32,000 nt of DNA. It comes from Trichodesmium erythraeum IMS101 (lineage in GTDB: Bacteria; Cyanobacteriota; Cyanobacteriia; Cyanobacteriales; Microcoleaceae). Shown here piece after piece: positions 9,593 through 29,845 of this stretch. The stretch is from assembly GCF_000014265.1 (NCBI RefSeq), contig NC_008312.1, positions 6,690,001 to 6,722,000 on the forward strand, read 5' to 3'. The position numbers and the translations under genes are program-made. The notes under the pieces are model-generated. The model did no database searches and was not told where the DNA came from. It was given only the letters and a program-made list of their open reading frames with translations. How positions within the stretch are numbered: the first letter of the stretch is position 1; every line of letters starts with the position of its first letter.

Positions 9593-10990
9593 TCAATTAT
9601 TTAATAAATTTCTTGGAGGTATTTCTCGTCCTTGATAAAACTGTTTTTCTAATTTACTTAACAGTAACCAAAAAACAACTCCAACAGGCAAACTTAAAAT
9701 CAAAAAAGTCATCAAAGTCATATTAAAATCATCTAATATTAACAGCATAAAAAAAATACTTGCCCAGATAAATGAAGTCACAAGCACGACTCCAACCTTT
9801 ATTCGTTGTAAATTTTTTAAAGCTCTGCGACAACTACTACATTTTTTAGTATGAGAATGATACCTATCTAACAATATTTCTGAGTTCAGAGCAGAACTTA
9901 AAGTTGCATTAGGAAATAATTGAGCATTATATTTATTCACCCAAGAACGCAATTCAAATACAAATAAATCTGCTTTTGTAGGTAAATAAAAAGCCTTAGA
10001 AAAATTAGCACTACCACCCTTTGCTTCTAAATATCGTTCTTGATAATGTAAAAATATTTGGTCATCTTCCAATACTCCATTTTGCCCAATATGAGAATAC
10101 CAACGGGGGCTTAACTGAATAAAAAATTTCGGTAAGGGAGAAGAAAACTTAAAAGGGAAACGGGCAAATAAACGACATTCTCCTTTACGAATAGGTGTTG
10201 CATATACAACTGTTAATGTACGACCAAATTGTTTAGAAGTAAGGTCATGCCACATCATTCCAGGAGCAATAAAAGTAGTCTCTTGTCTTCCTAAAGTTCC
10301 TTTTCTTGGACCTTCTTCCCAGACCCCTTTAAAACCCCATTTTCCAGATTCTAAAACTTCTAATTCTACAGGAGCAACATTAGCGCGGTTTCCCACAGTA
10401 CGATGATGAGTATAAGGAATATGACTAGCATCTAAGACATTTTCCATTAATGTTAAACCATCATAAGGTACATCTCGAAAAGTATTTAAACAAATCCATT
10501 CATTAGAATTTTCATCTAAAACATCAACTTTAGGAATAGGTGTTTGAGCAGCATTTTCGATTTTTCCTGCATAGACAAATAAAAGACCTTGACAAACTTT
10601 TGTAGGTAGAGATTTAACTTTTGCTCTTGATGATTTTTCTGCCTTTCCTCCTGCAATTTGTTGAGGAATAATTTCACAATTTCCTCCCCCTGAAAATGCC
10701 CAACCATGATAGGGGCATTCTAAGCATCCAGCCTCATTAATTCTACCTTGAGAAAGGGGTGCTAAACGATGGGGACATTGATCTTCAAATACCCGCCATT
10801 GATTGTTTTTTTCTTCCCACCAAATCACAAGATCTTGTTCTAATAATGTAAATGTTGTAGGTTTATTTTTCTCTAAGTCTTCTATATAATAAATTGGATA
10901 CCAAACTTCTTGCCAATCAAAATATTCTGGGTCTGTTCCACCTGCACTTACAGGAATATTGTCGGATTTTTTGATGGTATTAGCAATCAT
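9593..10990 (-). CDS. Rieske [2Fe-2S] non-haem iron oxygenase of the PAO/Tic55/PTC52 family
   Basis: 465-aa ORF. It has the Rieske motif CPHRLAPLSQG...CPYHGWAF, a mononuclear iron region (DASHIPYTHH), a C-terminal CxxC (HTKKCSSCRRAL) and two C-terminal TM helices, as in pheophorbide a oxygenase-like proteins. Confidence 0.9.
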   Translation of the reverse strand: MIANTIKKSDNIPVSAGGTDPEYFDWQEVWYPIYYIEDLEKNKPTTFTLLEQDLVIWWEEKNNQWRVFEDQCPHRLAPLSQGRINEAGCLECPYHGWAFSGGGNCEIIPQQIAGGKAEKSSRAKVKSLPTKVCQGLLFVYAGKIENAAQTPIPKVDVLDENSNEWICLNTFRDVPYDGLTLMENVLDASHIPYTHHRTVGNRANVAPVELEVLESGKWGFKGVWEEGPRKGTLGRQETTFIAPGMMWHDLTSKQFGRTLTVVYATPIRKGECRLFARFPFKFSSPLPKFFIQLSPRWYSHIGQNGVLEDDQIFLHYQERYLEAKGGSANFSKAFYLPTKADLFVFELRSWVNKYNAQLFPNATLSSALNSEILLDRYHSHTKKCSSCRRALKNLQRIKVGVVLVTSFIWASIFFMLLILDDFNMTLMTFLILSLPVGVVFWLLLSKLEKQFYQGREIPPRNLLNN

Positions 10991-12575: not shown

Positions 12576-12854
12576 ATGAATAACCCCAAAATCACGATTA
12601 CTTTAAAACTATTTGCAGTCTACCAAGAAGCTTACAAAGTTCCCGAAGTCCAACTCAGCATTTCCCATGGAACAACAGTATCTCAACTTCTAGAAAGGGT
12701 CATTAGCCAATACCCCGAACTAGAAAAGTGGCAAGATGTCACAAAATTTGGCATTAACCTCAATTTTGTCCCTCCAGAAACCATTCTTCAAAACGGCGAC
12801 GAAGTTGTCCTCATTCCTCCAGTCAGTGGTGGCCTTCATGATTTTAGAATTTAG
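12576..12854 (+). CDS. MoaD-type ubiquitin-fold sulfur-carrier protein with a 6-residue extension after Gly-Gly
   Basis: 92 aa. ...NGDEVVLIPPVSGG matches the MoaD C-terminus (E. coli ...DGDEVAFFPPVTGG), but the ORF continues LHDFRI* (12837-12854). Confidence 0.75.
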   Translation: MNNPKITITLKLFAVYQEAYKVPEVQLSISHGTTVSQLLERVISQYPELEKWQDVTKFGINLNFVPPETILQNGDEVVLIPPVSGGLHDFRI

Positions 12855-13025
12855 AGATTTTTTTTTAGAAAATATAATTTACTCCCTATCTAGTCATAGA
12901 TTATAGACTTAAACAAAATTAAAGTTCATAAAATGATACATTTACTATAACAAAAAGTAATATAAATAAACTAAAATTAACTATTTATCTGTAGCATCAA
13001 ATTAATGAAAAAATGCTCAAAAATT

Positions 13026-13081
13026 ATACCCGACTGTTTTTGTCGGGTATGGTTGACGGTAACTTTGACCCATGCTAGTAT
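13026..13081 (+). promoter_or_regulatory. Hairpin abutting a sigma70-like promoter upstream of the ThrC-like gene
   Basis: Perfect inverted repeat ATACCCGAC (13026-13034) / GTCGGGTAT (13042-13050). It is followed by TTGACG (13053-13058), a 17-nt spacer and TAGTAT (13076-13081), 47 nt before the ATG. A GGGAG Shine-Dalgarno sequence precedes the start. Confidence 0.4.
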
Positions 13082-13128
13082 CTGAAAAATCTAAATAGTT
13101 CTGAGAAATGAAGTAGGGAGTAAAGACT

Positions 13129-14442
13129 ATGACCCATGCCACAAAAACTCATAACCAAATCGAAACGACAAACACAGCCGTAGAAAACCTTAGATGCAAA
13201 GAATGTGGAGAAGAATACCCCTTAGAAGCAAAACACATATGTGAAGACGTGTGCTTTGGCCCTTTAGAAGTTAAATATAATTACGAAAAGCTCTCTCAAA
13301 TAGTAAGTAGGGCCACAATAGAAGCAGGCCCTAAGTCTATCTGGCGTTATCGACATTTCCTACCAGTGGTAACAGACAACTTTATAGATGTAGGAACAGG
13401 TATGACTCCCCTCGTAAAATCAGAACGTTTAGCACGTCGCCTGGGTCTAAAAAATCTCTATATTAAAAATGATGCAGTAAATATGCCTACCCTTAGTTTC
13501 AAAGATAGGGTAGTATCAGTGGCCTTAAGTCGCGCTAGAGAATTAGGTTTCTCTACAGTATCTTGTGCAAGTACAGGTAACCTAGCTAACTCTACCGCAG
13601 CGATCGCGGCCAAAGCTGGATTAGAATGTTGTGTATTTATTCCTGCTGACTTAGAAGCAGGAAAAGTTCTTGGTACCTTAATTTACAACCCAACACTCAT
13701 GGCAGTTAAAGGGAACTATGACCAAGTAAACCGCCTTTGTTGCGAAGTAGCAAATAGCTACGGTTGGGGCTTTGTAAATATTAATCTCCGCCCATATTAT
13801 TCAGAAGGTTCAAAAACTCTTGGTTTTGAAGTTGCTGAACAACTAGGATGGCAACTACCAGATCATGTGGTTGCTCCTATTGCTTCTGGTTCCCTTTACA
13901 CCAAAATTTACAAAGGGTTCCAAGAGTTTATCAAAGTAGGTTTAGTGGAAGATAAGGCAGTTCGTTTTAGTGGAGCCCAAGCTGAAGGTTGTTCACCAGT
14001 AGCTCAAGCATTTAAGGAGGAGCGTGATTTTATATCACCAGTTAAACCTAATACTATTGCTAAGTCAATTGCTATTGGCAACCCGGCAGATGGTGTCTAC
14101 GCACTAGAGTTAGCTCGTAAAACAAATGGTAACATTGAATCTGTGAATGATACTGAGATTATTGAAGGTATAAAATTATTAGCAGAAACAGAAGGTATAT
14201 TTACAGAAACAGCGGGTGGTACAACTATTGCTGTATTGAAAAAGTTAGTAGAGGCAGGTAAAATTGACCCTGAAGAGACTACTGTTGTTTACATTACAGG
14301 CAATGGCTTAAAGACTCAAGAAGCAGTACAAGGTTATGTCGGCGAACCTTTAACAATAGAAGCAAAGCTGGATAGTTTTGAAAGAGCATGGGAACGCGCT
14401 CAAACATTAGAACGTCTTGACTGGCAACAAGTTTTGGTTTAA
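13129..14442 (+). CDS. thrC: Threonine synthase-family PLP enzyme with N-terminal zinc ribbon
   Basis: 437 aa. Cys-rich N-terminus LRCKECGEEYPLEAKHICEDVCFGPLEV. PLP-lysine motif PTLSFKDR. Fold-type II PLP blocks (CASTGNLANS, GSLYTKIYKG, TGNGLK). Whether it is a true ThrC or a ThrC-like sulfur-transfer enzyme cannot be decided from sequence by eye. Confidence 0.85.
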   Translation: MTHATKTHNQIETTNTAVENLRCKECGEEYPLEAKHICEDVCFGPLEVKYNYEKLSQIVSRATIEAGPKSIWRYRHFLPVVTDNFIDVGTGMTPLVKSERLARRLGLKNLYIKNDAVNMPTLSFKDRVVSVALSRARELGFSTVSCASTGNLANSTAAIAAKAGLECCVFIPADLEAGKVLGTLIYNPTLMAVKGNYDQVNRLCCEVANSYGWGFVNINLRPYYSEGSKTLGFEVAEQLGWQLPDHVVAPIASGSLYTKIYKGFQEFIKVGLVEDKAVRFSGAQAEGCSPVAQAFKEERDFISPVKPNTIAKSIAIGNPADGVYALELARKTNGNIESVNDTEIIEGIKLLAETEGIFTETAGGTTIAVLKKLVEAGKIDPEETTVVYITGNGLKTQEAVQGYVGEPLTIEAKLDSFERAWERAQTLERLDWQQVLV

Positions 14443-14497
14443 TTTTTCGTTATCCTATGGGATTTTTATGATAAATTCCTAGGAAACTTAAGGTTAT

Positions 14498-14623
14498 ATA
14501 TAGTAATCCTATTTTTATGTGGTCTAAAATATTACCATTTTTTGGCAATATGTAATGAGTAATAGTTTTGGAGTTTATTTCTAGTTTTTGAATTTTTGCA
14601 ATAGTTTGATAGGATTACTATAT
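14498..14623. mobile_element. MITE-like element, copy 1 (126 bp, perfect 15-bp terminal inverted repeats)
   Basis: ATATAGTAATCCTAT (14498-14512) and ATAGGATTACTATAT (14609-14623). The core GGAGTTTATTTCTAGTTTTTGAATTTTT is shared with the element at 16711-16848. No coding capacity. Confidence 0.6.
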
Positions 14624-14734
14624 TAGTTTTGGAAAAATAATTTTTTTGTGAAAAAGATAACTATATTATTGAATTAACCATAATAATAAGTATCTACAAA
14701 TTAAGCGTTATTTATACGAGTTAATTAACAAGTT

Positions 14735-15010
14735 ATGGCAATCAAAGTTTTAATTCCTACTGCATTGCAAAAGTTTACTAACAATGAATCACAAATTGAA
14801 TGTAGTGCTGGTAATATTTTAGATTTAATTGAATCTCTAGAAGCTAAATATCCTGGTATAAAAAAAAGTCTTTGTGATGATAAAGGAGAACCAAGAAGAT
14901 TTTTAAATTTCTATGTTAATAGTGAAGATATTAGATTCTTAGAAGGAACAAAAACATCTATAAAAGATGGGGATGAAGTTAGTATTGTTCCTGCTGTTGC
15001 TGGTGGTTGA
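14735..15010 (+). CDS. CysO-like MoaD/ThiS-family sulfur-carrier protein ending in Gly-Gly
   Basis: 91 aa. [14 protein letters not shown]...[21 protein letters not shown]...[37 protein letters not shown] parallels M. tuberculosis CysO as I recall it (...VNIYVNDEDVRF...DGDSVTILPAVAGG). Confidence 0.8.
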
Positions 15011-17506: not shown

Positions 17507-20155
17507 TTAAAGAGTTCTCCCGCCATCGCAGACAAGACGAAAACCAGTATCGTAGTTGAGGTCGACGCGCCTATAAAAGTAGTTGCGAACCGCAGAACGG
17601 CAATTAATAGGAAGGTTGAGCCAAGAACCGCCCCGCAGCGGTGATCGTTCTTTATTTCCATTTAGCCAAACACTGCCATCTGTAGGCGCACCAGCATAGT
17701 TATTATGCCATTCATCCGCACACCACTCCCACACATTTCCATGCATGTCATACAAACCAAAAGCATTAGCAGGAAATTGACCTACAGGAGTTGTTTGTTC
17801 TCTATATTTTCCTTTTGGTCCATTGCCGTAAGTGTAGTTACCATCATAGTTAACTAATTCAGTTGTTATAGTCTCTCCAAAGTAGAAAGGTGTAGTAGTT
17901 CCTGCGCGACAAGCATATTCCCACTCTGCTTCACTCGGTAGTCTATAGTCTCTTCCTGTTTTCTTAGAGAGCTTTTGACAAAACTCTGTAGCGTTATTCC
18001 AACTTACACATTCCACAGGGCGATTTTTTCCTTTAAATTCCGAAGGATCATTTCCCATTATTGCTTGCCACTGTTGTTGAGTAACGACATACTTTCCCAT
18101 CCAAAATTCTGGCACATCTACATAATGTTGCGGACCTTCCTTGTCAAGTCTTTCTGCTTCCGTATCTGGAGACCCCATTAGAAACCTACCTCCAGGAATT
18201 TTCACCATTTCTAAAGACACTCCATTACCCAAATCTTCAATTATCTGTCTAGCGCTTTCTTGCCTACGGTTAACAATACTTCCAGAAGCATTAACCCTTA
18301 CAACTTCAAAAGTAAATAATTTTCCTTTTTCTGGTTGAGATGTTTGTGGCTGAGATATTTGTGGTGGAGAAATATGCTGAGTTTTCCCGCCATCGCAGAC
18401 AAGACGAAAACCAGTAATGAAGAAGTGGTCGTCGCGCCTAACAGAGTAGGTGTCGCGAACCGCAGAACGGCAATAATTAGGAAGGTCGTACCAAGAACCG
18501 CCCCGCAGCGGTGATCGTTCTTTATTTCCATTTAGCCAAACACTGCCATCTGTAGGCGCACCAGCATAGTTATTATGCCATTCATCCGCACACCACTCCC
18601 ACACATTTCCATGCATGTCATACAAACCAAAAGCATTAGCAGGAAATTGACCTACAGGAGTTGTTTGTTCTCTATATTTTCCTTTTGGTTCATTGCCGTA
18701 AGTGTACTTGCCATCATAGTTGACTAATTCAGTTGTTATAGTCTCTCCAAAGTAGAAAGGTGTAGTTGTCCCAGCACGACAAGCATATTCCCACTCTGCT
18801 TCACTCGGTAGTCTATAGTCTCTTCCTGTTTTCTTAGAGAGCTTTTGACAAAACTCTGTAGCGTTATTCCAACTTACACATTCCACAGGGCGATTTTTTC
18901 CTTTAAATTTCGAAGGATCATTTCCCATTATTGCTTGCCACTGTTGTTGAGTAACGACATACTTTCCCATCCAAAATTCTGGCACATCTACATAATGTTG
19001 CGGACCTTCATTACTATGTCTTTTTGCTTCCGTATTTGGAGACCCCATTAGAAACCTACCTCCAGGAATTTTTACCATTTCTAAAGACACTCCATTACCC
19101 AAATCTTCAATTATCTGTCTAGCGCTTTCTTGCCTACGGTTAACAATACTTCCAGAAGCATTAACCCTTACAACTTCAAAAGTAAATAATTTTCCTTTTT
19201 CTGGTTGAGCTCTTTGTGGCTGAGATATTTGTGGTGGAGAAATATGCTGAGTTTTCCTTTGAGAAGTCGGTTGAATAACAGACAAAATTTCTCCTACATT
19301 TTGAAACCTTTTCTTAGTTGCTCCCACAATCATTTTATCCAATATTTCCCCACATTCATTACTCACATTTGATTGTAAATAATCCCGCCATACCCAATCA
19401 TTTTCACTCACATCAAATAAGTCAAAAGGTTCTATTTGAGTTAATAAATGAATACAAGTTACACCTAGACTATAAATATCACTTACAAAACTTGCTTTTC
19501 CTACTGACTGTTCTGGTGCCACATATCCCGCAGAACCTATAACCGTTCCCGTTCTTCCTAAAGCTGTCATTGTCGCATATTTAGCTGCTCCACAATCTAC
19601 TAATACTAATTGATTATCTTTTCTTCTCCTAATAATATTTTCTGGTTTAATATCTCTGTGAATAATTTGTTGGGAATGAATAAATTCTAAAACTGGTAAT
19701 AAACTTTTTAATAATTCTAATATTTGATTTTCACTAAAAGCACCTGACTCTTCTAGTTCCTGCTTTAAATTTTGCCCATCAATAAATTCTTGCACTAAAT
19801 ATTGCCGATTATTCTGAGTAAAATATGCTAAAAGTTCTGGTATTTGTGAATGCCTACCTAAACCATCTAAACGTTCTGCTTCTTGAGCAAATAATTTCGC
19901 AGCTTTTTCCAAATTTTTAGTTCCTTGTGCTTGAGGAAAAAATTGTTTAATTACACAAAAAGGCTTTGAAGGTTTATCTTCATCTACAGCTTGAAAAGTT
20001 CTACCAAAACCTCCTTCTCCGATTATTTTCAGAGGGCGATAACGTTCTCTTAATACTAATTTTTCACCACAGCTAGTACAGAATTTTGTTTGTGCTTGGT
20101 TAACTTCTAAACAGTCAGGGTTTAAACATTGAGTCGTTTCAATTTTTAGAGTCAT
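17507..20155 (-). CDS. Ser/Thr protein kinase with N-terminal zinc ribbon and two tandem FGE-sulfatase / C-type-lectin-fold domains
   Basis: 882 aa. Zinc ribbon CLNPDC...CTSCGE. Hanks kinase motifs GEGGFGRTF, VIKQ, HRDIKPEN, DCG, GSAGYVAPE. These are followed by two ~290-aa copies of an FGE-type domain (MVKIPGGRFLMGSP...PVECVSWNNATEFC...YRLPSEAEWEYACRAG...GNVWEWC...RGGSW...GFRLVC). Confidence 0.9.
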   Translation of the reverse strand: MTLKIETTQCLNPDCLEVNQAQTKFCTSCGEKLVLRERYRPLKIIGEGGFGRTFQAVDEDKPSKPFCVIKQFFPQAQGTKNLEKAAKLFAQEAERLDGLGRHSQIPELLAYFTQNNRQYLVQEFIDGQNLKQELEESGAFSENQILELLKSLLPVLEFIHSQQIIHRDIKPENIIRRRKDNQLVLVDCGAAKYATMTALGRTGTVIGSAGYVAPEQSVGKASFVSDIYSLGVTCIHLLTQIEPFDLFDVSENDWVWRDYLQSNVSNECGEILDKMIVGATKKRFQNVGEILSVIQPTSQRKTQHISPPQISQPQRAQPEKGKLFTFEVVRVNASGSIVNRRQESARQIIEDLGNGVSLEMVKIPGGRFLMGSPNTEAKRHSNEGPQHYVDVPEFWMGKYVVTQQQWQAIMGNDPSKFKGKNRPVECVSWNNATEFCQKLSKKTGRDYRLPSEAEWEYACRAGTTTPFYFGETITTELVNYDGKYTYGNEPKGKYREQTTPVGQFPANAFGLYDMHGNVWEWCADEWHNNYAGAPTDGSVWLNGNKERSPLRGGSWYDLPNYCRSAVRDTYSVRRDDHFFITGFRLVCDGGKTQHISPPQISQPQTSQPEKGKLFTFEVVRVNASGSIVNRRQESARQIIEDLGNGVSLEMVKIPGGRFLMGSPDTEAERLDKEGPQHYVDVPEFWMGKYVVTQQQWQAIMGNDPSEFKGKNRPVECVSWNNATEFCQKLSKKTGRDYRLPSEAEWEYACRAGTTTPFYFGETITTELVNYDGNYTYGNGPKGKYREQTTPVGQFPANAFGLYDMHGNVWEWCADEWHNNYAGAPTDGSVWLNGNKERSPLRGGSWLNLPINCRSAVRNYFYRRVDLNYDTGFRLVCDGGRTL
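17549..17620 (-). other. Hypervariable patch B (DGR variable-region-like) at the C-terminus of the kinase
   Basis: Encodes W-LN-LP-IN-CRSAVR-NYFYRRVDLNYD-TGFRLV. See the first finding for the codon-position analysis. Confidence 0.45.
18416..18490 (-). other. Hypervariable patch A (DGR variable-region-like), internal copy
   Basis: Encodes W-YD-LP-NY-CRSAVR-DTYSVRRDDHFFI-TGFRLV. It is one codon longer than patch B. Confidence 0.45.
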
Positions 20156-22120: not shown

Positions 22121-22130
22121 TTATATTTAA

Positions 22131-22246
22131 CCTGGCATCGTGCTATTTTACCGGGCAGCTACCCACCGAGTATCTTCACCACTGCAGCGTTTCACTTCCG
22201 AGTTCGAGATGGATCGGAGTGGTTCCACTGCGTCATAGACACCAGG
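22131..22246 (-). rRNA. rrf: 5S ribosomal RNA (116 nt)
   Basis: The reverse complement reads CCTGGTGTCTATGACGCAGTGGAACCACTCCGATCCATCTCGAACTCGGAAGTGAAACGCTGCAGTGGTGAAGATACTCGGTGGGTAGCTGCCCGGTAAAATAGCACGATGCCAGG. The terminal helix I is CCUGGUGUC/GAUGCCAGG. The loop C/E boxes (CGAACUCGGAAGUGAAACG, GGGUAGC) match bacterial 5S. Confidence 0.9.
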
Positions 22247-23060: not shown

Positions 23061-23747
23061 TTATTTTTTAGTAATTAAATAACCACAGCGATGTTCTCCA
23101 TTAACAATTGAGTGGGTTCTTTCCACAGTACAATCAGGCAGTACAGCACCAAACATCTCTAATTCATGGCCACAAACAATGGGAAAAGATTCGGCCACAT
23201 TAGATATGGCACAATTATGTTCTATTAATATATAGCCTTCAACTTCCTCTAAACTTGAATCACTTTTGAATTGTGAGTTTTGAGTTTTGACCTGTTCATT
23301 AGGGTACAATTCTGCCATGTAGCCCTCAGCTTTGCGAATTTCTACTAATTGGGCCATCCGCTCCTGTACTGAGCCTGTCCCCAATAGTTGGCGATAGTGC
23401 ATTGCTTTGCGTTGCCATTGTTCGTGCAGCACTTGGCTGAGTTGCTCATGTCCCATAGTTTCGGCAAAGGTATCGAGGAAAGAAACAGCGAATTTATCGT
23501 AGCTGTGGGGAAAGCGATCGCGTCCCTGGGTTGTCAGTTCATAAATATGTTGTGGCCTTCCCGTTCCTGTTCCTACTGATTTGTATGTAATTAGTCCTTC
23601 TCGTTCCAGATCCTTCAAATGACGACGTATAGCTTGGGGACTAATTTCTAGGGACTTAGCTAATTCTAAGGCAGTAGCTTGAGTTTGCTTCATCAAATGT
23701 TGCAGAATTTCTTGTTTGGTTGAATTTTGTTGAGTCGTTTCCATCAT
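23061..23747 (-). CDS. sufR: Fe-S cluster biogenesis transcriptional repressor SufR
   Basis: 228 aa. N-terminal winged-HTH region (ILQHLMKQTQATALELAKSLEISPQAIRRHLKDLEREGLI). C-terminal Cys ligand pattern (HNCAISNVAESFPIVCGHE...CGYL). Divergent from sufBCDS, as in other cyanobacteria. Confidence 0.9.
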   Translation of the reverse strand: MMETTQQNSTKQEILQHLMKQTQATALELAKSLEISPQAIRRHLKDLEREGLITYKSVGTGTGRPQHIYELTTQGRDRFPHSYDKFAVSFLDTFAETMGHEQLSQVLHEQWQRKAMHYRQLLGTGSVQERMAQLVEIRKAEGYMAELYPNEQVKTQNSQFKSDSSLEEVEGYILIEHNCAISNVAESFPIVCGHELEMFGAVLPDCTVERTHSIVNGEHRCGYLITKK

Positions 23748-23749
23748 TT

Positions 23750-23770
23750 CAGTTATCAGTTATCAGTTAT
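23750..23770. repeat. Three tandem heptamers directly upstream of the sufR start
   Basis: Plus strand CAGTTAT x3 (23750-56, 57-63, 64-70). On the sufR strand this reads ATAACTG ATAACTG ATAACTG AA ATG. Confidence 0.85.
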
Positions 23771-23896
23771 TAATACCGACCCCCTTCAGCCAGGGACTTA
23801 AATACTTATGACAAAAAATCTTTGTCGTCCCCTATCCCAGGGCGGGAGACCTAATTTTTTGGTTTTTTGGTAAAAAAAAAATATTTTTACTAGACT

Positions 23897-23957
23897 TTGA
23901 CAATATTAGTATTGTTAATGTAACATAAAAGAGAATTAAACAACAAATAAGTTGTTT
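23897..23957 (+). promoter_or_regulatory. sufB promoter region with two SufR-operator-like palindromes
   Basis: TTGACA (23897-23902), an 18-nt spacer, TAACAT (23921-23926). Palindromes: ACAAT-ATTAGT-ATTGT (23900-23915) and AAACAAC-AAATAA-GTTGTTT (23938-23957). The latter is the CAAC-N6-GTTG form reported for SufR sites. Confidence 0.55.
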
Positions 23958-23997
23958 AAGTATCCACCAAGTAAATATAACGAGGAAATTAAGTATA

Positions 23998-25434
23998 ATG
24001 ACTGCTAAAGTAACAAGTTTAGTCAATCAACCTTATAAATATGGTTTTGTCACTGATATTGAGTCAGACACAATTCCTCGTGGACTAAGCGAAGACATAG
24101 TTCGTCTGATATCTGCTAAAAAGAATGAACCAGAGTTCATGCTCAACTTTCGTCTCAAAGCATACAAGAAGTGGCTGCAAATGAAAGAACCACTTTGGGC
24201 ACATGTTGACTATCCAAAAATAGACTATCAGAATATTATTTACTATTCAGCACCAAAATTGCAAGACAAGAAGAAAAGTCTAGAGGAAGTAGACCCTACT
24301 TTGTTAGAAACTTTTGAGAAACTTGGCATTCCCCTCTCAGAGCAGAAACGTCTAAGCAACGTTGCGGTTGATGCTGTGTTTGATAGTGTTTCTGTTGCTA
24401 CTACTTTTAAAGAAAAGCTGGCTGAGGAAGGGGTAATTTTTGGCTCTATATCTGAAGCAGTACAGGAACATCCAGAGTTAGTAGAAAAATATCTGGGTAG
24501 TGTTGTACCAGTGGGGGATAATTTTTTTGCGGCTCTTAATTCTGCTGTGTTTAGTGATGGGTCTTTTGTGTTTATTCCTAAAGGTGTAAAGTGTCCGATG
24601 GATCTATCGACATACTTTAGAATTAATAATGGTGAGTCTGGTCAGTTTGAGCGGACTTTAATTGTGGCAGAGGAGGGTAGTTCAGTAACATATTTGGAAG
24701 GTTGCACTGCTCCAATGTTCGATACTAACCAACTTCACGCTGCGGTAGTTGAGCTGGTTACCCTTGACAATGCTGAAATTAAATATTCAACTGTGCAAAA
24801 TTGGTTTGCTGGGGATGAAAATGGTAAAGGTGGTATTTATAATTTTGTGACTAAGCGCGGTTTGTGTAAAGGAGTAAATTCTAAAATTTCTTGGACTCAG
24901 GTAGAGACTGGTTCAGCTATTACCTGGAAATATCCTAGTTGTGTTTTGGTGGGTGATAACTCAGTGGGAGAATTTTATTCTGTTGCTCTAACTAATAATA
25001 AACAACAAGCAGATACAGGCACAAAAATGGTACATGTTGGCAAAAATACTCGCAGTACAATTATTTCTAAAGGTATTTCTGCTGGGAACTCCGCTAATAG
25101 TTACCGTGGTTTAGTAAAAATGGGGCCTGGTGCTAAGGGATCACGGAACTATTCTCAATGTGACTCAATGTTAATAGGCGATCGCGCACAAGCAAATACT
25201 TTTCCTTATATTCAAGTAGATAATAATACTGCTAAGGTTGAACATGAAGCTTCTACTTCTAAAATTGGAGTTGACCAACTTTTCTATTTTGCTCAAAGAG
25301 GTATTTCTCCTGAGGATGCGGTTTCTATGATTATTAGTGGTTTTTGTAAGGATGTATTTAATGAATTACCAATGGAGTTTGCTGCGGAAGCTGATAAGTT
25401 ATTGAGTCTGAAATTAGAAGGTACAGTAGGTTAA
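23998..25434 (+). CDS. sufB: Fe-S cluster assembly scaffold protein SufB
   Basis: 478 aa. A canonical SufB sequence throughout (YKYGF...[13 protein letters not shown]...TYFRIN...[12 protein letters not shown]...YLEGCTAP...ISKGIS...YRGLV...CDSMLIGD...[10 protein letters not shown]). Confidence 0.95.
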
Positions 25435-26013
25435 ATAAGGGAGTAGGGGAGAAGGCTAAAAAATATTCATGTTTGTAATTATACCATATCAAATTAAAGT
25501 TTGTTGTAATAATTAATAATGAATGAGTTTTCTGCCAGTTACTACTTCATGTTACTAAAAAACTTTCTAACTCTTTTTTTTGCAACTTTAGTTTGGGTTT
25601 TGCACTGCAACATGATTAAATGGCAAGGCAACCCAATAAAAGTTTATATCTATAGTTTTCAGCACATCGCGTATCAGCGAAAGTAAAAACTATAGTAAAA
25701 ACTATTGGTTGTCGATGATAAGTTTTATTAATTTCCTAACACTTTGGGACTAGTTATATATGATTCTAGTAGATAAAACGTCATTTTCAAATAATTAAAA
25801 TCAGAGTAAGGCTTACGTACCGACCTGGTGCTCATACAAAATTTCCAGATTTGAAAAACAGTAATCAGGGTAATAAACCAGGTTTCCTCTTTGGGTGAGT
25901 AAGTCCTGAAGATAATTACAATTTACACCCCACTTAAACTTAGCAGTAATTATTAATTATTAATTAATTACTAAAGTACTTACTTCTTAGAGAAATCAAG
26001 GGTAAATTACTTA

Positions 26014-26829
26014 ATGAAAATCATTCATAACTCTTCTTATGTAAATATGATTAAAGAAAATAGCGAAGTAATTTTATCTGTTAAAAACTTAACAGCGAAT
26101 GTAGAGGGAAAAGAGATTCTCAAAGGTTTTAATCTGGAAATAAAAGCGGGAGAAATCCATGCTATTATGGGGCCAAATGGTTCTGGAAAAAGCACATTTT
26201 CTAAAGTCTTGGCTGGTCATCCGGCCTACGAAGTTACAGGTGGAGAAGTAACATTTTTAGGTAAAAATTTATTCGACATGGAACCAGAGGAACGATCATT
26301 AAATGGTGTTTTTTTGGCATTTCAATATCCTCTAGAAATTCCTGGAGTTAGTAACTTAGATTTTTTACGAGTTGCTTATAATACGAAACAAAAATATCAA
26401 GGATTAGAAGAATTAGATGCTTTTGATTTTGATGATTTGGTACAGGATAAATTAGATGTTGTGAAAATGAAACCAGAGTTTTTAGACCGGAGTGTAAATG
26501 AAGGTTTTTCTGGAGGGGAAAAGAAGCGAAATGAAATATTACAAATGGCATTGTTAGAGCCAAAATTAGCAATTTTAGATGAGACAGACTCCGGGTTAGA
26601 TATTGATGCTTTGAGGATAGTGGCAAATGGAGTAAATAAATTAGCAAATGAATCAAATTCTTTGTTAATAATTACTCACTATCAACGTTTATTAAACTAC
26701 ATTGTTCCGGATTTTGTTCATGTAACAGAAAGTGGTAGAATTATTAAAACTGGTACAAAAGAATTAGCATTAGAATTAGAAGAAAAAGGTTACGATGATG
26801 TGACTGAAGTAGCAAAAGTTGGGGTTTAA
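26014..26829 (+). CDS. sufC: Fe-S cluster assembly ATPase SufC
   Basis: Walker [13 protein letters not shown] signature [13 protein letters not shown], Walker [13 protein letters not shown] and an H-loop (ITHY). The true start may be the ATG at 26047 ([15 protein letters not shown]). Confidence 0.95.
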
Positions 26830-26834
26830 AAAGT

Positions 26835-28196
26835 ATGCAAATATCCGTCAAACCAGAGATATTTTATTTAGACAAATTACTTGAAGAATCTTGTAAAAAA
26901 GTTTCCCCAGCTATAGCGTCAGACTTTTCTCTAGATGTAAAGATGGCAGCTTGGTTACAACAAGTACGCGATCGCGCAGCTGCCTGGGTGCGTGAGTTGA
27001 GTATTCCTACTAAAAAAGATGAGGAATGGCGCTTTACTAATTTGTCTTCAATGATGAAGCTAAGTTTCCAAGCACCGACCCTAGTAGACTTGGATGCTTT
27101 GAATATCGCTCCATTTATTTTGCCGGAAGTAGCAGACAGTCGGTTGGTGTTTGTCAATGGGGTATTTGCTCCTCAGTTATCAGAGGTGAAAGGTATAGAA
27201 AATCAGGTATTTGTGGGCAATTTGGGGCAGTTGCCTGAGGAATATCAAAAGCGCGTTGGCAATTATTTGGCACAACAACCAGGGAGTGAAGAAGTATTTA
27301 CTTGCTTAAATACTGCTGGTTTAACTGATGCAGCAGTAGTATGGTTGCCCAAAAATCAGGTGCTAGAAAAACCAATACATCTATTGTTTATTGCGACTGA
27401 GACGGAAATTCCTATATTGACTCAGCGCCGTTGTTTAGTAGTAGCAGAAAGCAATAGTAGTGGGAAAATAATTGAGCATTGTGTGACAGCAGAAGTAATT
27501 TGTCCAGAAGCACCAAATTCTCATCCCTATCTGACAAATACTGTTACAGAAATATGGGTAGAGGAAAATGCAGAAATTGATCATACTAGAGTGCAACGAG
27601 ATGCAGGGGCAGCGTTTCATATTGGCAAAACAGCGATCGCTCAAGCTAAAAATAGTCGTTATACTTGTAATGCTATTAATTTGGGAGGAAGGTTATCTCG
27701 TCATAATTTAGAAGTTGTTCAAATGGGTGAGGGAACAGAAACAAATCTTTATGGTTTGGCATTTCTTAGGAATGAGCAAGAAATAGATACTCACAGCAGC
27801 ATTACTTTGAATTATCCCAATAGTGTGACTGACCAACTTTATAAGTGCATTGTTGATGACAAAGCACATTCTATATTTAATGGCAAAATATATGTTTCTC
27901 AAACTGCTCAGTTGACAAATGCTGCTCAATTAAATCGTAATTTGTTGCTTTCTTCTGGAGGGAGAGTTGATACAAAGCCACAGTTAGAAATTATTGCTGA
28001 TAATGTTCAATGTTCTCATGGGGCAACTGTTAGTCAGTTAGATGATGATGAGGTATTTTATTTACAAAGTCGAGGCTTGAGCCAAGAGGCAAGTCGCAAT
28101 TTGTTAATTGATGCTTTTGCTGCAGAAATTCTTAACAAGTTACCTTTACCTTCTTTGCAGCGTATTTTAAAACAATGTGTCGCTTGTAAAATTTAA
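26835..28196 (+). CDS. sufD: Fe-S cluster assembly protein SufD
   Basis: 453 aa, starting 6 nt after the sufC stop. It has the SufB/D-family C-terminal beta-helix region (QLYKCIVDDKAHSIFNGKIYV...TNAAQLNRNLLLS...VDTKPQLEIIADNVQCSHGATVSQLDDDEVFYLQSRGL). Confidence 0.9.
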   Translation: MQISVKPEIFYLDKLLEESCKKVSPAIASDFSLDVKMAAWLQQVRDRAAAWVRELSIPTKKDEEWRFTNLSSMMKLSFQAPTLVDLDALNIAPFILPEVADSRLVFVNGVFAPQLSEVKGIENQVFVGNLGQLPEEYQKRVGNYLAQQPGSEEVFTCLNTAGLTDAAVVWLPKNQVLEKPIHLLFIATETEIPILTQRRCLVVAESNSSGKIIEHCVTAEVICPEAPNSHPYLTNTVTEIWVEENAEIDHTRVQRDAGAAFHIGKTAIAQAKNSRYTCNAINLGGRLSRHNLEVVQMGEGTETNLYGLAFLRNEQEIDTHSSITLNYPNSVTDQLYKCIVDDKAHSIFNGKIYVSQTAQLTNAAQLNRNLLLSSGGRVDTKPQLEIIADNVQCSHGATVSQLDDDEVFYLQSRGLSQEASRNLLIDAFAAEILNKLPLPSLQRILKQCVACKI

Positions 28197-28582
28197 CATA
28201 AGAAAGGATAAATAAAGTGAGTTAATAAGTTTATTTAGATCTAGAGCTAACTCAAACTTAAAAGACTAATGTTAAATAATACCTTTGTCATGTTGGCATC
28301 TTGCCTGCTATACTTAATAGCTCAAAAGAAATAAGGCCTCAAGCAACTTTATTCAAGGGGATAAAAGAGGAAATTGCAGACTTTCTGACTTCGGTATTAT
28401 TGGAGGTATTGTTTTATCACCTAAAATGAACAATACAGTTCCTCCTCCAGGAGGCTAACTGATAACTAATTTTCTGGCCTCCTTATTACTGGAGCACTGT
28501 TTAACTACCCAACATGAAAAAAGCAGTTTCTCTTCTAGGAGGCTAATTTATAACTGACCATTGATAACTGATAATTAAAAAG

Positions 28583-29845
28583 ATGACTATTATTCAAGAA
28601 AGAACTTTGGCAGAAAAATTACGTGCAGATTTTCCAATTTTAAATCAGGAAATAAATGGTGAACCACTTATTTATTTAGATAATGCTGCTACTTCCCAAA
28701 AACCATTAGCAGTTATCAACGCTTGGCAAGAATATTACCTCAAATATAATTCTAATGTGCATCGGGGTATTCATACTTTAAGCTCGAAGGCAACAGATGC
28801 TTATGAAGGGGCAAGAGATAAAGTGGCTGCTTTGATTAATGCGGCATCTCGGAATGAAATTATTTATACTCGAAATGCTAGCGAAGCAGTTAATTTGGTT
28901 GCTTATTCTTGGGGTTTAAATAATCTTAAATCAGGAGATGAAATAATTGTCTCTGTGATGGAACATCATAGTAATTTTGTTCCCTGGCAAATGGTTGCTC
29001 AAAAAACTGGATCAGTTTTAAAATTTGTTGAGTTGAATGAAACTGAAGAACTTAATTTAGAACAATATAAAGCTCTAATTTCAGACAAAACAAAGTTAGT
29101 TGCATTAGCTCATGTTTCTAATGTTTTAGGTTGTATTAATCCAATTCAAGAAATTTGTTCAATTGCTCATAAAAATGGAGCTAAAGTATTAATAGATGCT
29201 TGCCAAAGTGTACCTCATTGTGTGGTAGATGTGCAGTCAATAGATTGTGATTGGTTAGTAGCTTCCGGCCATAAAATGTGCGCTCCTACTGGTATTGGTT
29301 TTTTGTATGGTAAGTTGGAATTACTAAAAGAAATGCCACCATTTTTAGGAGGGGGTGAAATGATTTCTGAGGTGTTTCTTGATCATTATACTTATGCAGA
29401 ATTACCTCATAAATTTGAAGCAGGAACCCCAGCGATAGGAGAGGCGATCGCTCTTGGTGCAGCAGTAGATTATCTCACAAATATAGGTATGGAAAAAATT
29501 CATAATTATGAAGTAGAATTAACTACCTATTTATTTAATAAATTACGTCAAATTCCTCAAATTACTATTTACGGACCTCAACCAAATACCTATGGAGAAG
29601 GTAGAGGGACATTAGTATCTTTTACAGTAGAAAATATTCATCCTAACGATTTATCAACAATGTTAGATGAAGCAGGGATAGCAATTCGTTCTGGTCATCA
29701 TTGTGCTCAACCTTTGCATCAATATTTAAAGGTTTCATCCACAGCAAGAGCAAGTTTATCTTTTTATAATACTCGTGATGATATTGATATTTTTGTTGAT
29801 GCTTTGAAAGATACAATCAATTTTTTTGCTGATATTATGGGTTGA
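28583..29845 (+). CDS. sufS: Cysteine desulfurase SufS (group II)
   Basis: 420 aa. [12 protein letters not shown], the PLP-lysine block [17 protein letters not shown], and the catalytic Cys loop RSGHHCAQP. Confidence 0.95.

Follow-up and report, generated by a model that had tools for sequence, protein, structure and literature searches.

The 32,000-nucleotide stretch of Trichodesmium erythraeum IMS101 analysed here (contig NC_008312.1, positions 6,690,001 to 6,722,000; the window, in its entirety) carries a gene for a threonine synthase (ThrC)-like enzyme dependent on pyridoxal phosphate (PLP), followed on the same strand by a gene for a small sulfur-carrier protein. As judged from sequence comparison, these two genes (13129-14442 and 14735-15010) probably form a cyanobacterial pair of the metM/metO type, making homocysteine from O-phosphohomoserine. 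This reading is preferred because the carrier gene adjoins the enzyme gene, the enzyme falls in a clade away from the solved threonine synthases, homologues in that clade are linked to S-adenosylmethionine (SAM) riboswitches and to carrier genes, residues of the substrate loops have changed, and the carrier itself belongs to the CysO family. The pathway and its cyanobacterial homologues are already published, and the present findings are therefore a confirmation and extension rather than a discovery; the 'threonine synthase' label of the window gene is likely a misannotation of a known kind, and not the sign of a new system. What appears to be new in the accessible literature is the phylum-wide count of enzyme-carrier linkage, the operator-promoter architecture ahead of the enzyme gene, and the C-terminal tails found on the MoaD protein encoded upstream.

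Linkage of the carrier to the enzyme

Three open reading frames (ORFs) follow one another on the + strand, at 12576-12854 (92 amino acids, aa), 13129-14442 (437 aa) and 14735-15010 (91 aa), exactly where a preliminary description of the window had placed them, and the last of the encoded proteins has the AVAGG end noted there. Both of the small proteins match Pfam ThiS (PF02597), with E-values of 1e-16 for the upstream and 2e-17 for the downstream protein, in agreement with the earlier claim that the enzyme gene is flanked by two ubiquitin-fold sulfur-carrier genes, although the upstream protein runs on past its Gly-Gly into a tail, LHDFRI, which that description had overlooked.

The downstream protein ends in PAVAGG followed by the stop codon, leaving a free Gly-Gly that would need no C-terminal trimming. 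Its closest solved relatives are the CysO proteins of Amycolatopsis orientalis (4n6e_B, 75 bits) and Mycobacterium tuberculosis (3dwg_C, 70 bits), both of which align with it end to end, the C-terminal PAVAGG included; solved chains named MoaD score no more than 40 bits, and the thiS model reaches 20.6 bits, under its cut-off. The protein is thus described here as a sulfur carrier of the CysO/MetO family, one proposed to supply thiocarboxylate sulfur to the enzyme encoded upstream of it. Its length of 91 aa is kept in almost every cyanobacterium, and identity over the scanned loci is 60-95%.

A scan of one genome per species gave 80 cyanobacterial loci in which the encoded enzyme is 82-95% identical to that of the window, and the counts given below use only those loci with sufficient flanking sequence (at least 700 bp for the downstream carrier and at least 2.5 kb for the upstream MoaD-like gene). 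A CysO-like carrier lies directly 3' of the enzyme gene, on the same strand, in all 75 of the informative species loci, with a median gap of 127 bp. The linkage is also found outside the phylum, with a carrier homologue 40-46% identical to that of the window directly downstream of the enzyme gene in four of five non-cyanobacterial members of the clade. In three of these five a SAM-I riboswitch (RF00162) is situated immediately 5' of the enzyme gene, scoring 64-77 bits against a gathering score of 44.4. Two of the loci (L090 and L094) have both the carrier and the riboswitch, two (L093 and L095) have the carrier without the riboswitch, and one, from Micromonosporaceae (L089), has the riboswitch without the carrier. 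The ThrC-like enzyme and its downstream carrier are the conserved unit; were the two not functionally coupled, an adjacency kept in 75 of 75 cyanobacterial loci and in other phyla would be difficult to account for. The preliminary description had proposed that the neighbourhood of all three genes be examined for conservation, and this was borne out for the downstream carrier but not for the upstream MoaD gene, which adjoins the enzyme gene in 26 of 69 loci.

The called gene ends in two of the non-cyanobacterial loci imply that the MetO homologue extends past the alignment with the window carrier, by about 17 residues in L090 (9432-9758) and about 5 in L093 (3531-4062), and in L093 a NIL-domain gene comes directly after the carrier. 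Within 8 kb of the enzyme-carrier pair in 81 loci, the only recurrent neighbours beyond the two carriers are an unannotated protein of about 188 aa and lineage-specific genes. In 24 of the 81 loci (L046, 11894-12457, among them), mostly in Nostocales, the carrier gene is followed on its own strand by the gene for the 188-aa protein, whose N-terminus is of low complexity and rich in Ala and Pro; this gene does not occur in the Trichodesmium window.

Divergence of the enzyme from threonine synthases

The enzyme is of fold-type II (Pfam PALP, PF00291, E 2e-74), with K125 (13501-13503) as the Schiff-base lysine. Its N-terminus carries four cysteines, C23, C26, C38 and C42 (codons 23-42, 13195-13254), which are kept across the wider family; this motif corresponds to the zinc ribbon of the preliminary description and would be expected to bind metal.

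Among solved structures the enzyme is best matched by the short canonical threonine synthases from Aquifex, Bacillus, Thermus and Mycobacterium, which score 166-203 bits and align only from residue ~61-71 onward, leaving about 70 N-terminal residues outside the coverage of every solved threonine synthase. The enzyme is 83-98% identical across cyanobacterial genera, and a search of 1.84 billion cluster representatives returned full-length relatives at 36-62% identity. Identity to four solved threonine synthases (Aquifex 2zsj, B. subtilis 6cgq, T. thermophilus 1uim and M. tuberculosis 2d1f) is 35-38%, compared with 50-60% to the non-cyanobacterial homologues that are linked to a SAM riboswitch or a carrier. 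In a neighbour-joining tree the window enzyme and five other cyanobacterial orthologues grouped with relatives at 50-62% identity, and the four solved threonine synthases formed a separate group. Compared with a canonical threonine synthase, then, the window enzyme shares the fold, the catalytic lysine motif SFKDR and presumably the substrate, but differs in its additional N-terminal four-Cys ribbon, in its obligate carrier neighbour and in its low overall identity.

The divergence extends to the active site. The motifs KDRVVS and STGNLANS of the window enzyme stand in place of KDRGMT and STGNTSAS in ThrC, and at 11 alignment positions 15-16 of the 16 clade members agree on one residue, where at least five of the six canonical sequences agree on another. 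Numbered as in Thermus, with the catalytic Lys61 as anchor, these are G64V, M65V, T88L, A90N, A113E, F134Y, L138N, S155N, N157R, R160Y and N191L. All are found within the substrate loops of ThrC or close to them, with G64V and M65V adjoining Lys61 and T88L and A90N sitting in the STGNT loop, and the conserved loop residues of the solved enzymes (KDRGM, STGNT, S155, R160 and N191) are accordingly KDRVV, STGNL, N, Y and L in the window enzyme. In threonine synthase the phosphate directs water to C-beta. Thermus residues T88, S155 and R160 are presumed here to hold the phosphate of the substrate or product, and if these roles are right, the site that decides the addition of water at C-beta has been rebuilt in the window enzyme, in which case the arginine nearby (N157R) would bind the same phosphorylated substrate.

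The proposal that this gene encodes a carrier-dependent sulfur enzyme of the MetM/MetO type, which was the central suggestion of the preliminary description, thus came through each of the indirect tests that were run; in particular, the enzyme does not cluster tightly with proven threonine synthases and the downstream carrier is co-conserved with it.

Proposed homocysteine synthesis and its alternatives

The MetM/MetO pathway was described in Streptomyces albulus by Hasebe et al. (2024; Appl Environ Microbiol 90:e01247-24), as related in PMC12172450 and in GapMind 2026 (bioRxiv 10.1101/2024.10.14.618325). According to these two accounts, S. albulus MetM is a ThrC homologue encoded behind a SAM riboswitch, and in the summary given by GapMind 2026 it converts O-phosphohomoserine and MetO-thiocarboxylate to homocysteine, with Mec and MoeZ as partners. 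MetM is 'often misannotated' as threonine synthase (GapMind 2026), and B. subtilis ThrC shares no more than 33% identity with it. The window pair resembles this system in the pairing of a ThrC-homologous PLP enzyme with a CysO-like Gly-Gly carrier, and the actinobacterial and other homologues at 50-55% identity to the window enzyme share the SAM riboswitch reported for metM. The cyanobacteria differ in having a palindrome at the promoter instead of a SAM riboswitch, and for them the MetM activity is a prediction.

The preliminary description held the arrangement to be uncharacterised in cyanobacteria, which does not stand, given that Hasebe et al. (2024), as cited in PMC12172450, had already noted cyanobacterial homologues of MetM, and that a thrC/metO-like pair of Microcystis aeruginosa PCC 7806 was studied in PMC12172450 itself. 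The Microcystis enzyme shares 51.6% identity with MetM, and the neighbouring protein 47% with MetO; the enzyme has an extra N-terminal segment (T9-T57), and no SAM riboswitch is present (PMC12172450). By this architecture and by its metO-like neighbour, the Microcystis 'ThrC' is an apparent orthologue of the window enzyme. A second Microcystis gene, thrC2, clusters with the canonical enzymes. Threonine induced the enzyme and carrier genes 10.5-fold and 6.8-fold, an induction reversed by methionine, and the toxicity of threonine was likewise relieved by methionine (PMC12172450).

Each step of the mechanism proposed for the window pair is modelled on CysO/CysM/Mec and on the S. albulus pathway as GapMind 2026 summarises it. 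A MoeB/MoeZ-type E1 enzyme with a rhodanese domain, encoded elsewhere in the genome, would adenylate the C-terminal Gly-Gly of the carrier and convert it to a thiocarboxylate. The ThrC-fold enzyme would bind O-phosphohomoserine and eliminate phosphate, after which the thiocarboxylate of the carrier would add at C-gamma, where threonine synthase adds water at C-beta. A Mec-like JAMM hydrolase, also encoded elsewhere, would then hydrolyse the carrier-homocysteine adduct, releasing homocysteine and regenerating the carrier. The upstream MoaD would in this scheme be a neighbour probably sharing the same E1, and not a second donor for the enzyme.

The CysO/CysM/Mec system of M. tuberculosis offers a close parallel for the carrier, the window protein being a full-length homologue of CysO with the same PAVAGG end, and for the principle of a fold-type II PLP enzyme that takes sulfur from a protein thiocarboxylate. 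Its points of difference are that the window carrier is paired with a ThrC-family rather than a CysM/OASS-family enzyme, that there is no adjacent mec gene, and that the expected substrate is O-phosphohomoserine rather than O-phosphoserine.

Several observations weigh against assigning the pair to homocysteine synthesis. The enzyme passes the NCBIfam thrC equivalog model (TIGR00260) with 347.7 bits against a cut-off of 167.1. In vitro, the recombinant protein from Microcystis, the apparent orthologue, was active both as a threonine synthase and as a threonine deaminase; with Na2S, and not the carrier thiocarboxylate, as sulfur source, the assay yielded no clear homocysteine but a single unidentified signal (PMC12172450). 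The neighbour-joining tree was built without bootstrap support and without S. albulus MetM, and placement of the enzyme in the MetM clade is tentative, being drawn from the proxies of SAM riboswitch, carrier adjacency and published identities. No match to a SAM riboswitch was found in the window or in six other cyanobacterial loci. Finally, neither a ThiF/MoeB-type E1 nor a JAMM protease was found in the 32-kb window, by Pfam scans of most ORFs of at least 80 aa and by precomputed Pfam annotations of an identical contig for the remaining called genes, in agreement with the preliminary description, and no E1 or JAMM hydrolase recurs within 8 kb of the enzyme-carrier pair in 81 loci.

The first two of these points also speak for a genuine threonine synthase, perhaps a bifunctional synthase/deaminase, next to a carrier that is merely linked and serves another pathway; the catalytic lysine and overall fold common to ThrC and the window enzyme agree with it as well, and the Microcystis protein was read by its authors as a moonlighting threonine synthase/deaminase (PMC12172450, 2025). 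This explanation is nevertheless considered unlikely. It leaves unaccounted for the adjacency of a CysO-family carrier in 75 of 75 loci and in other phyla, the SAM riboswitches ahead of homologues in the clade, and the replacement of substrate-loop residues that are invariant in the solved threonine synthases. Model cyanobacteria also have a second annotated thrC (ThrC2 in Microcystis; sll1172 and sll1688 in Synechocystis, where two thrC genes are annotated). Canonical threonine synthases show deaminase side activity too (PMC12172450), which means that deaminase activity does not define the function. The evidence gathered here therefore differs from the published reading of the Microcystis protein in favouring a MetM function, and the Microcystis expression data may be reinterpreted: a response to methionine starvation would fit them no less well, with a surplus of threonine shutting down the shared aspartate pathway and thereby derepressing the met genes. 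As for the missing riboswitch, this is a regulatory feature and not a defining one for a MetM enzyme.

A second alternative is a thiocarboxylate-dependent enzyme with another product, which could be cysteine made from O-phosphoserine (CysM-like chemistry on a ThrC fold) or a different sulfur compound. The closest solved relatives of the carrier are indeed CysO proteins, which serve cysteine and 2-thiosugar synthesis, and the window enzyme gives a weak match (88 bits) to the model of cysteate synthase (TIGR03844), a ThrC-family enzyme that uses O-phosphoserine. S-box riboswitches, moreover, also control some cysteine and other sulfur genes. Such a product is judged improbable, however, in that S. 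albulus MetM, the biochemically characterised member of the clade, makes homocysteine from O-phosphohomoserine according to the accounts cited above, and in that methionine is what reverses both the induction and the toxicity in Microcystis (PMC12172450).

If the pair does make homocysteine, one of the two 'threonine synthase' annotations would be wrong in most cyanobacterial genomes, including that of Trichodesmium, a globally important nitrogen fixer. Sulfur would then be incorporated into methionine in cyanobacteria by way of a protein thiocarboxylate and O-phosphohomoserine, a branch-point metabolite that plants use too, and the induction reported in 2025 under threonine toxicity in Microcystis would be a methionine-starvation response, and not the work of a moonlighting deaminase.

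A conserved candidate operator and promoter ahead of the enzyme gene

Alignment of the 220 nt 5' of the enzyme gene from 30 species revealed a near-invariant block, consisting of ATACCCGAC, a variable A/T-rich stretch of 7 nt, GTCGGGTAT, 2 nt, TTGACG, 17 nt and a TG-extended −10 element TAnTAT. In the window, the palindrome ATACCCGAC-N7-GTCGGGTAT, a candidate operator, occupies 13026-13050, and the promoter-like site recognised by a consensus scan follows at 13053-13081 on the + strand, with its −35 box TTGACG at 13053-13058, a 17-nt spacer and the TG-extended −10 box TAGTAT at 13076-13081. The 25-bp palindrome therefore abuts the −35 box of the enzyme promoter.

When searched as a 12-base core with up to two mismatches within 200 nt upstream, the palindrome was present in 79 of 79 species loci, 64-172 nt before the start codon. 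TTGAC stands at a fixed offset from it in 78 of 80 loci, and the −10 region GTGnTAnTAT is kept. The core has a single match in the 32-kb window, where none is expected by chance, and the exact core was found in 37 of 95 fetched loci, once per locus, always 5' of the ThrC-like gene and nowhere else there. Among the matches listed from a scan of metagenomes, which was swamped by GC-rich chance hits, only four had the full operator-plus-promoter layout, all of them before ThrC-like genes. No further members of a regulon were found for the palindrome in the window, in the 95 loci or among those listed metagenome matches, and the searchable literature contained no description of it, only unrelated primers.

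With near-invariant arms, a variable 7-nt spacer and a position upstream of the −35 box, the palindrome resembles a protein operator rather than an RNA hairpin. Around the window genes no riboswitch was matched in Rfam, either at gathering score or at E-values up to 10, nor was any matched in six other cyanobacterial loci, and it may be that in cyanobacteria a DNA-binding regulator replaces the SAM riboswitch. Transcription would then begin at a strong promoter, its −35 box adjoining the probable site of a methionine- or SAM-responsive regulator that takes the part of the riboswitch. The conserved operator offers a direct handle for finding such a regulator.

The probable MoaD gene upstream

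The gene at 12576-12854 (+) encodes a protein in which the Gly-Gly at codons 85-86 (12828-12833) is followed by the 6-residue tail LHDFRI (12834-12851), giving the C-terminus PPVSGG-LHDFRI, in which the Gly-Gly is not free. It scores 59.9 bits with the moaD model TIGR01682, for which the cut-off is 66.15. Its orthologues in most cyanobacteria are 86 aa long and end in PPVSGG, and in several source records they are named molybdopterin synthase sulfur carrier or molybdopterin converting factor subunit 1. The MoaD-like gene adjoins the ThrC-like gene upstream in 26 of 69 loci, from several cyanobacterial orders, and is not at that position in 62%. In Trichormus variabilis it is not near the ThrC-like gene and yet keeps a divergently oriented Rieske/PaO oxygenase gene beside it, an arrangement also seen in the window, where the PaO gene occupies 9593-10990 on the − strand. 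On account of the orthologue names, the PPVSGG end, the 26 of 69 adjacency and the Rieske/PaO neighbour kept in Trichormus, the upstream gene is read as probably the cyanobacterial MoaD, the small subunit of molybdopterin synthase, a ThiS/MoaD-fold sulfur carrier outside the core pair.

The divergent Rieske/PaO neighbour of MoaD is kept in distant cyanobacteria (L085-L087, L046 and L064), even with the ThrC-like gene elsewhere, and in Trichodesmium the petN gene lies between the two.

The preliminary description had drawn attention to two different carriers around one enzyme, and this arrangement is probably not a functional unit; MoaD is probably a frequent but dispensable neighbour, and the two flanking carriers a case of loose synteny. 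The palindrome is situated between MoaD and the enzyme gene, which places MoaD outside the regulatory unit of the enzyme. That both carriers nevertheless feed the enzyme, or act as a relay in a true three-gene module, is very improbable: the co-directional adjacency in 26 of 69 loci across several orders speaks for it, but the upstream gene is missing from that position in most loci, stands outside the conserved operator and promoter, has the PPVSGG end and the orthologue names of a MoaD, sits in Trichormus beside the divergent Rieske/PaO gene without the ThrC-like gene, and has its Gly-Gly masked by a tail in Trichodesmium.

Tails beyond the Gly-Gly of MoaD are confined to the Trichodesmium/Okeania/Dapis/Microcoleaceae group, and in most other cyanobacteria the protein stops at GG. 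The tails, found in the window and in L005, L007-L011, L067 and L073, are variable in sequence and 2-21 residues long (LHDFRI, QYNEY, LNSFRI, VGDSTINN and others). They would imply either C-terminal processing or a disabled carrier, and function of the Trichodesmium MoaD would need proteolytic trimming of LHDFRI.

In the HcyS/HcyD/HcyF/MetY system of Wolinella succinogenes and the QbsE/QbsD system of Pseudomonas, the Gly-Gly of the carrier is masked by C-terminal residues that a JAMM protease removes. The HcyS and QbsE carriers are in this respect like the tailed MoaD proteins, and like the implied extensions of the MetO homologues in L090 and L093. The two systems differ from the window pair in that the PLP enzyme is MetY or there is none, and in that the MetO-like carrier of the window has a free Gly-Gly. 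A broader proposition can be offered tentatively, and is more doubtful than not when taken as a whole: cyanobacteria may make homocysteine mainly via MetM/MetO, under the control of a dedicated DNA-binding regulator at the palindrome, and in Trichodesmium, Okeania and Dapis the same Gly-Gly-specific hydrolase may also mature the tailed MoaD pro-protein.

Insertion in the enzyme-carrier spacer and other features of the window

The spacer between enzyme and carrier contains an inverted-repeat element at 14498-14623, with arms of 15 nt (14498-14512 and 14609-14623) that are 100% complementary and 96 nt apart. The stretch with the inverted repeat is an insertion relative to relatives with short spacers, and is absent from a Microcoleaceae relative with a spacer of 131 bp. 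A second copy was found neither in the window nor in an exact two-arm scan of metagenome contigs. The earlier suggestion of a miniature inverted-repeat transposable element (MITE)-like insertion agrees with the perfect repeat and the insertion, but the MITE label is unproven because no further copy was found. The spacer as a whole (14443-14734) is a hotspot of small lineage-specific insertions, those of Trichodesmium, Dapis and Okeania all being different, and another metagenome-assembled genome of Trichodesmium has a nested extra insert in it. About 110 bp just before the carrier start are conserved.

Elsewhere in the window, a full-length 5S ribosomal RNA (rRNA) gene is found at 22130-22246 (− strand, 70 bits), and there is no match to 23S or 16S rRNA in the 32 kb at gathering threshold; the 5S gene looks like an orphan copy. 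At 17507-20155 (− strand), a protein of 882 aa is encoded with a start that reads as Cys-rich and zinc-ribbon-like, and with an FGE-sulfatase domain in its C-terminal part according to the annotation of the identical contig. It contains two nearly identical segments, each opening with a near-identical stretch of about 60 residues, which suggests that part of the gene was duplicated recently. At 23061-29845, some 8 kb beyond the carrier genes on the downstream side, a winged-helix regulator is encoded beside suf-type genes for Fe-S cluster assembly, which end in a class-V aminotransferase (28583-29845), likely a cysteine desulfurase. This cluster probably serves general Fe-S metabolism and not as a dedicated source of sulfur for the carriers.

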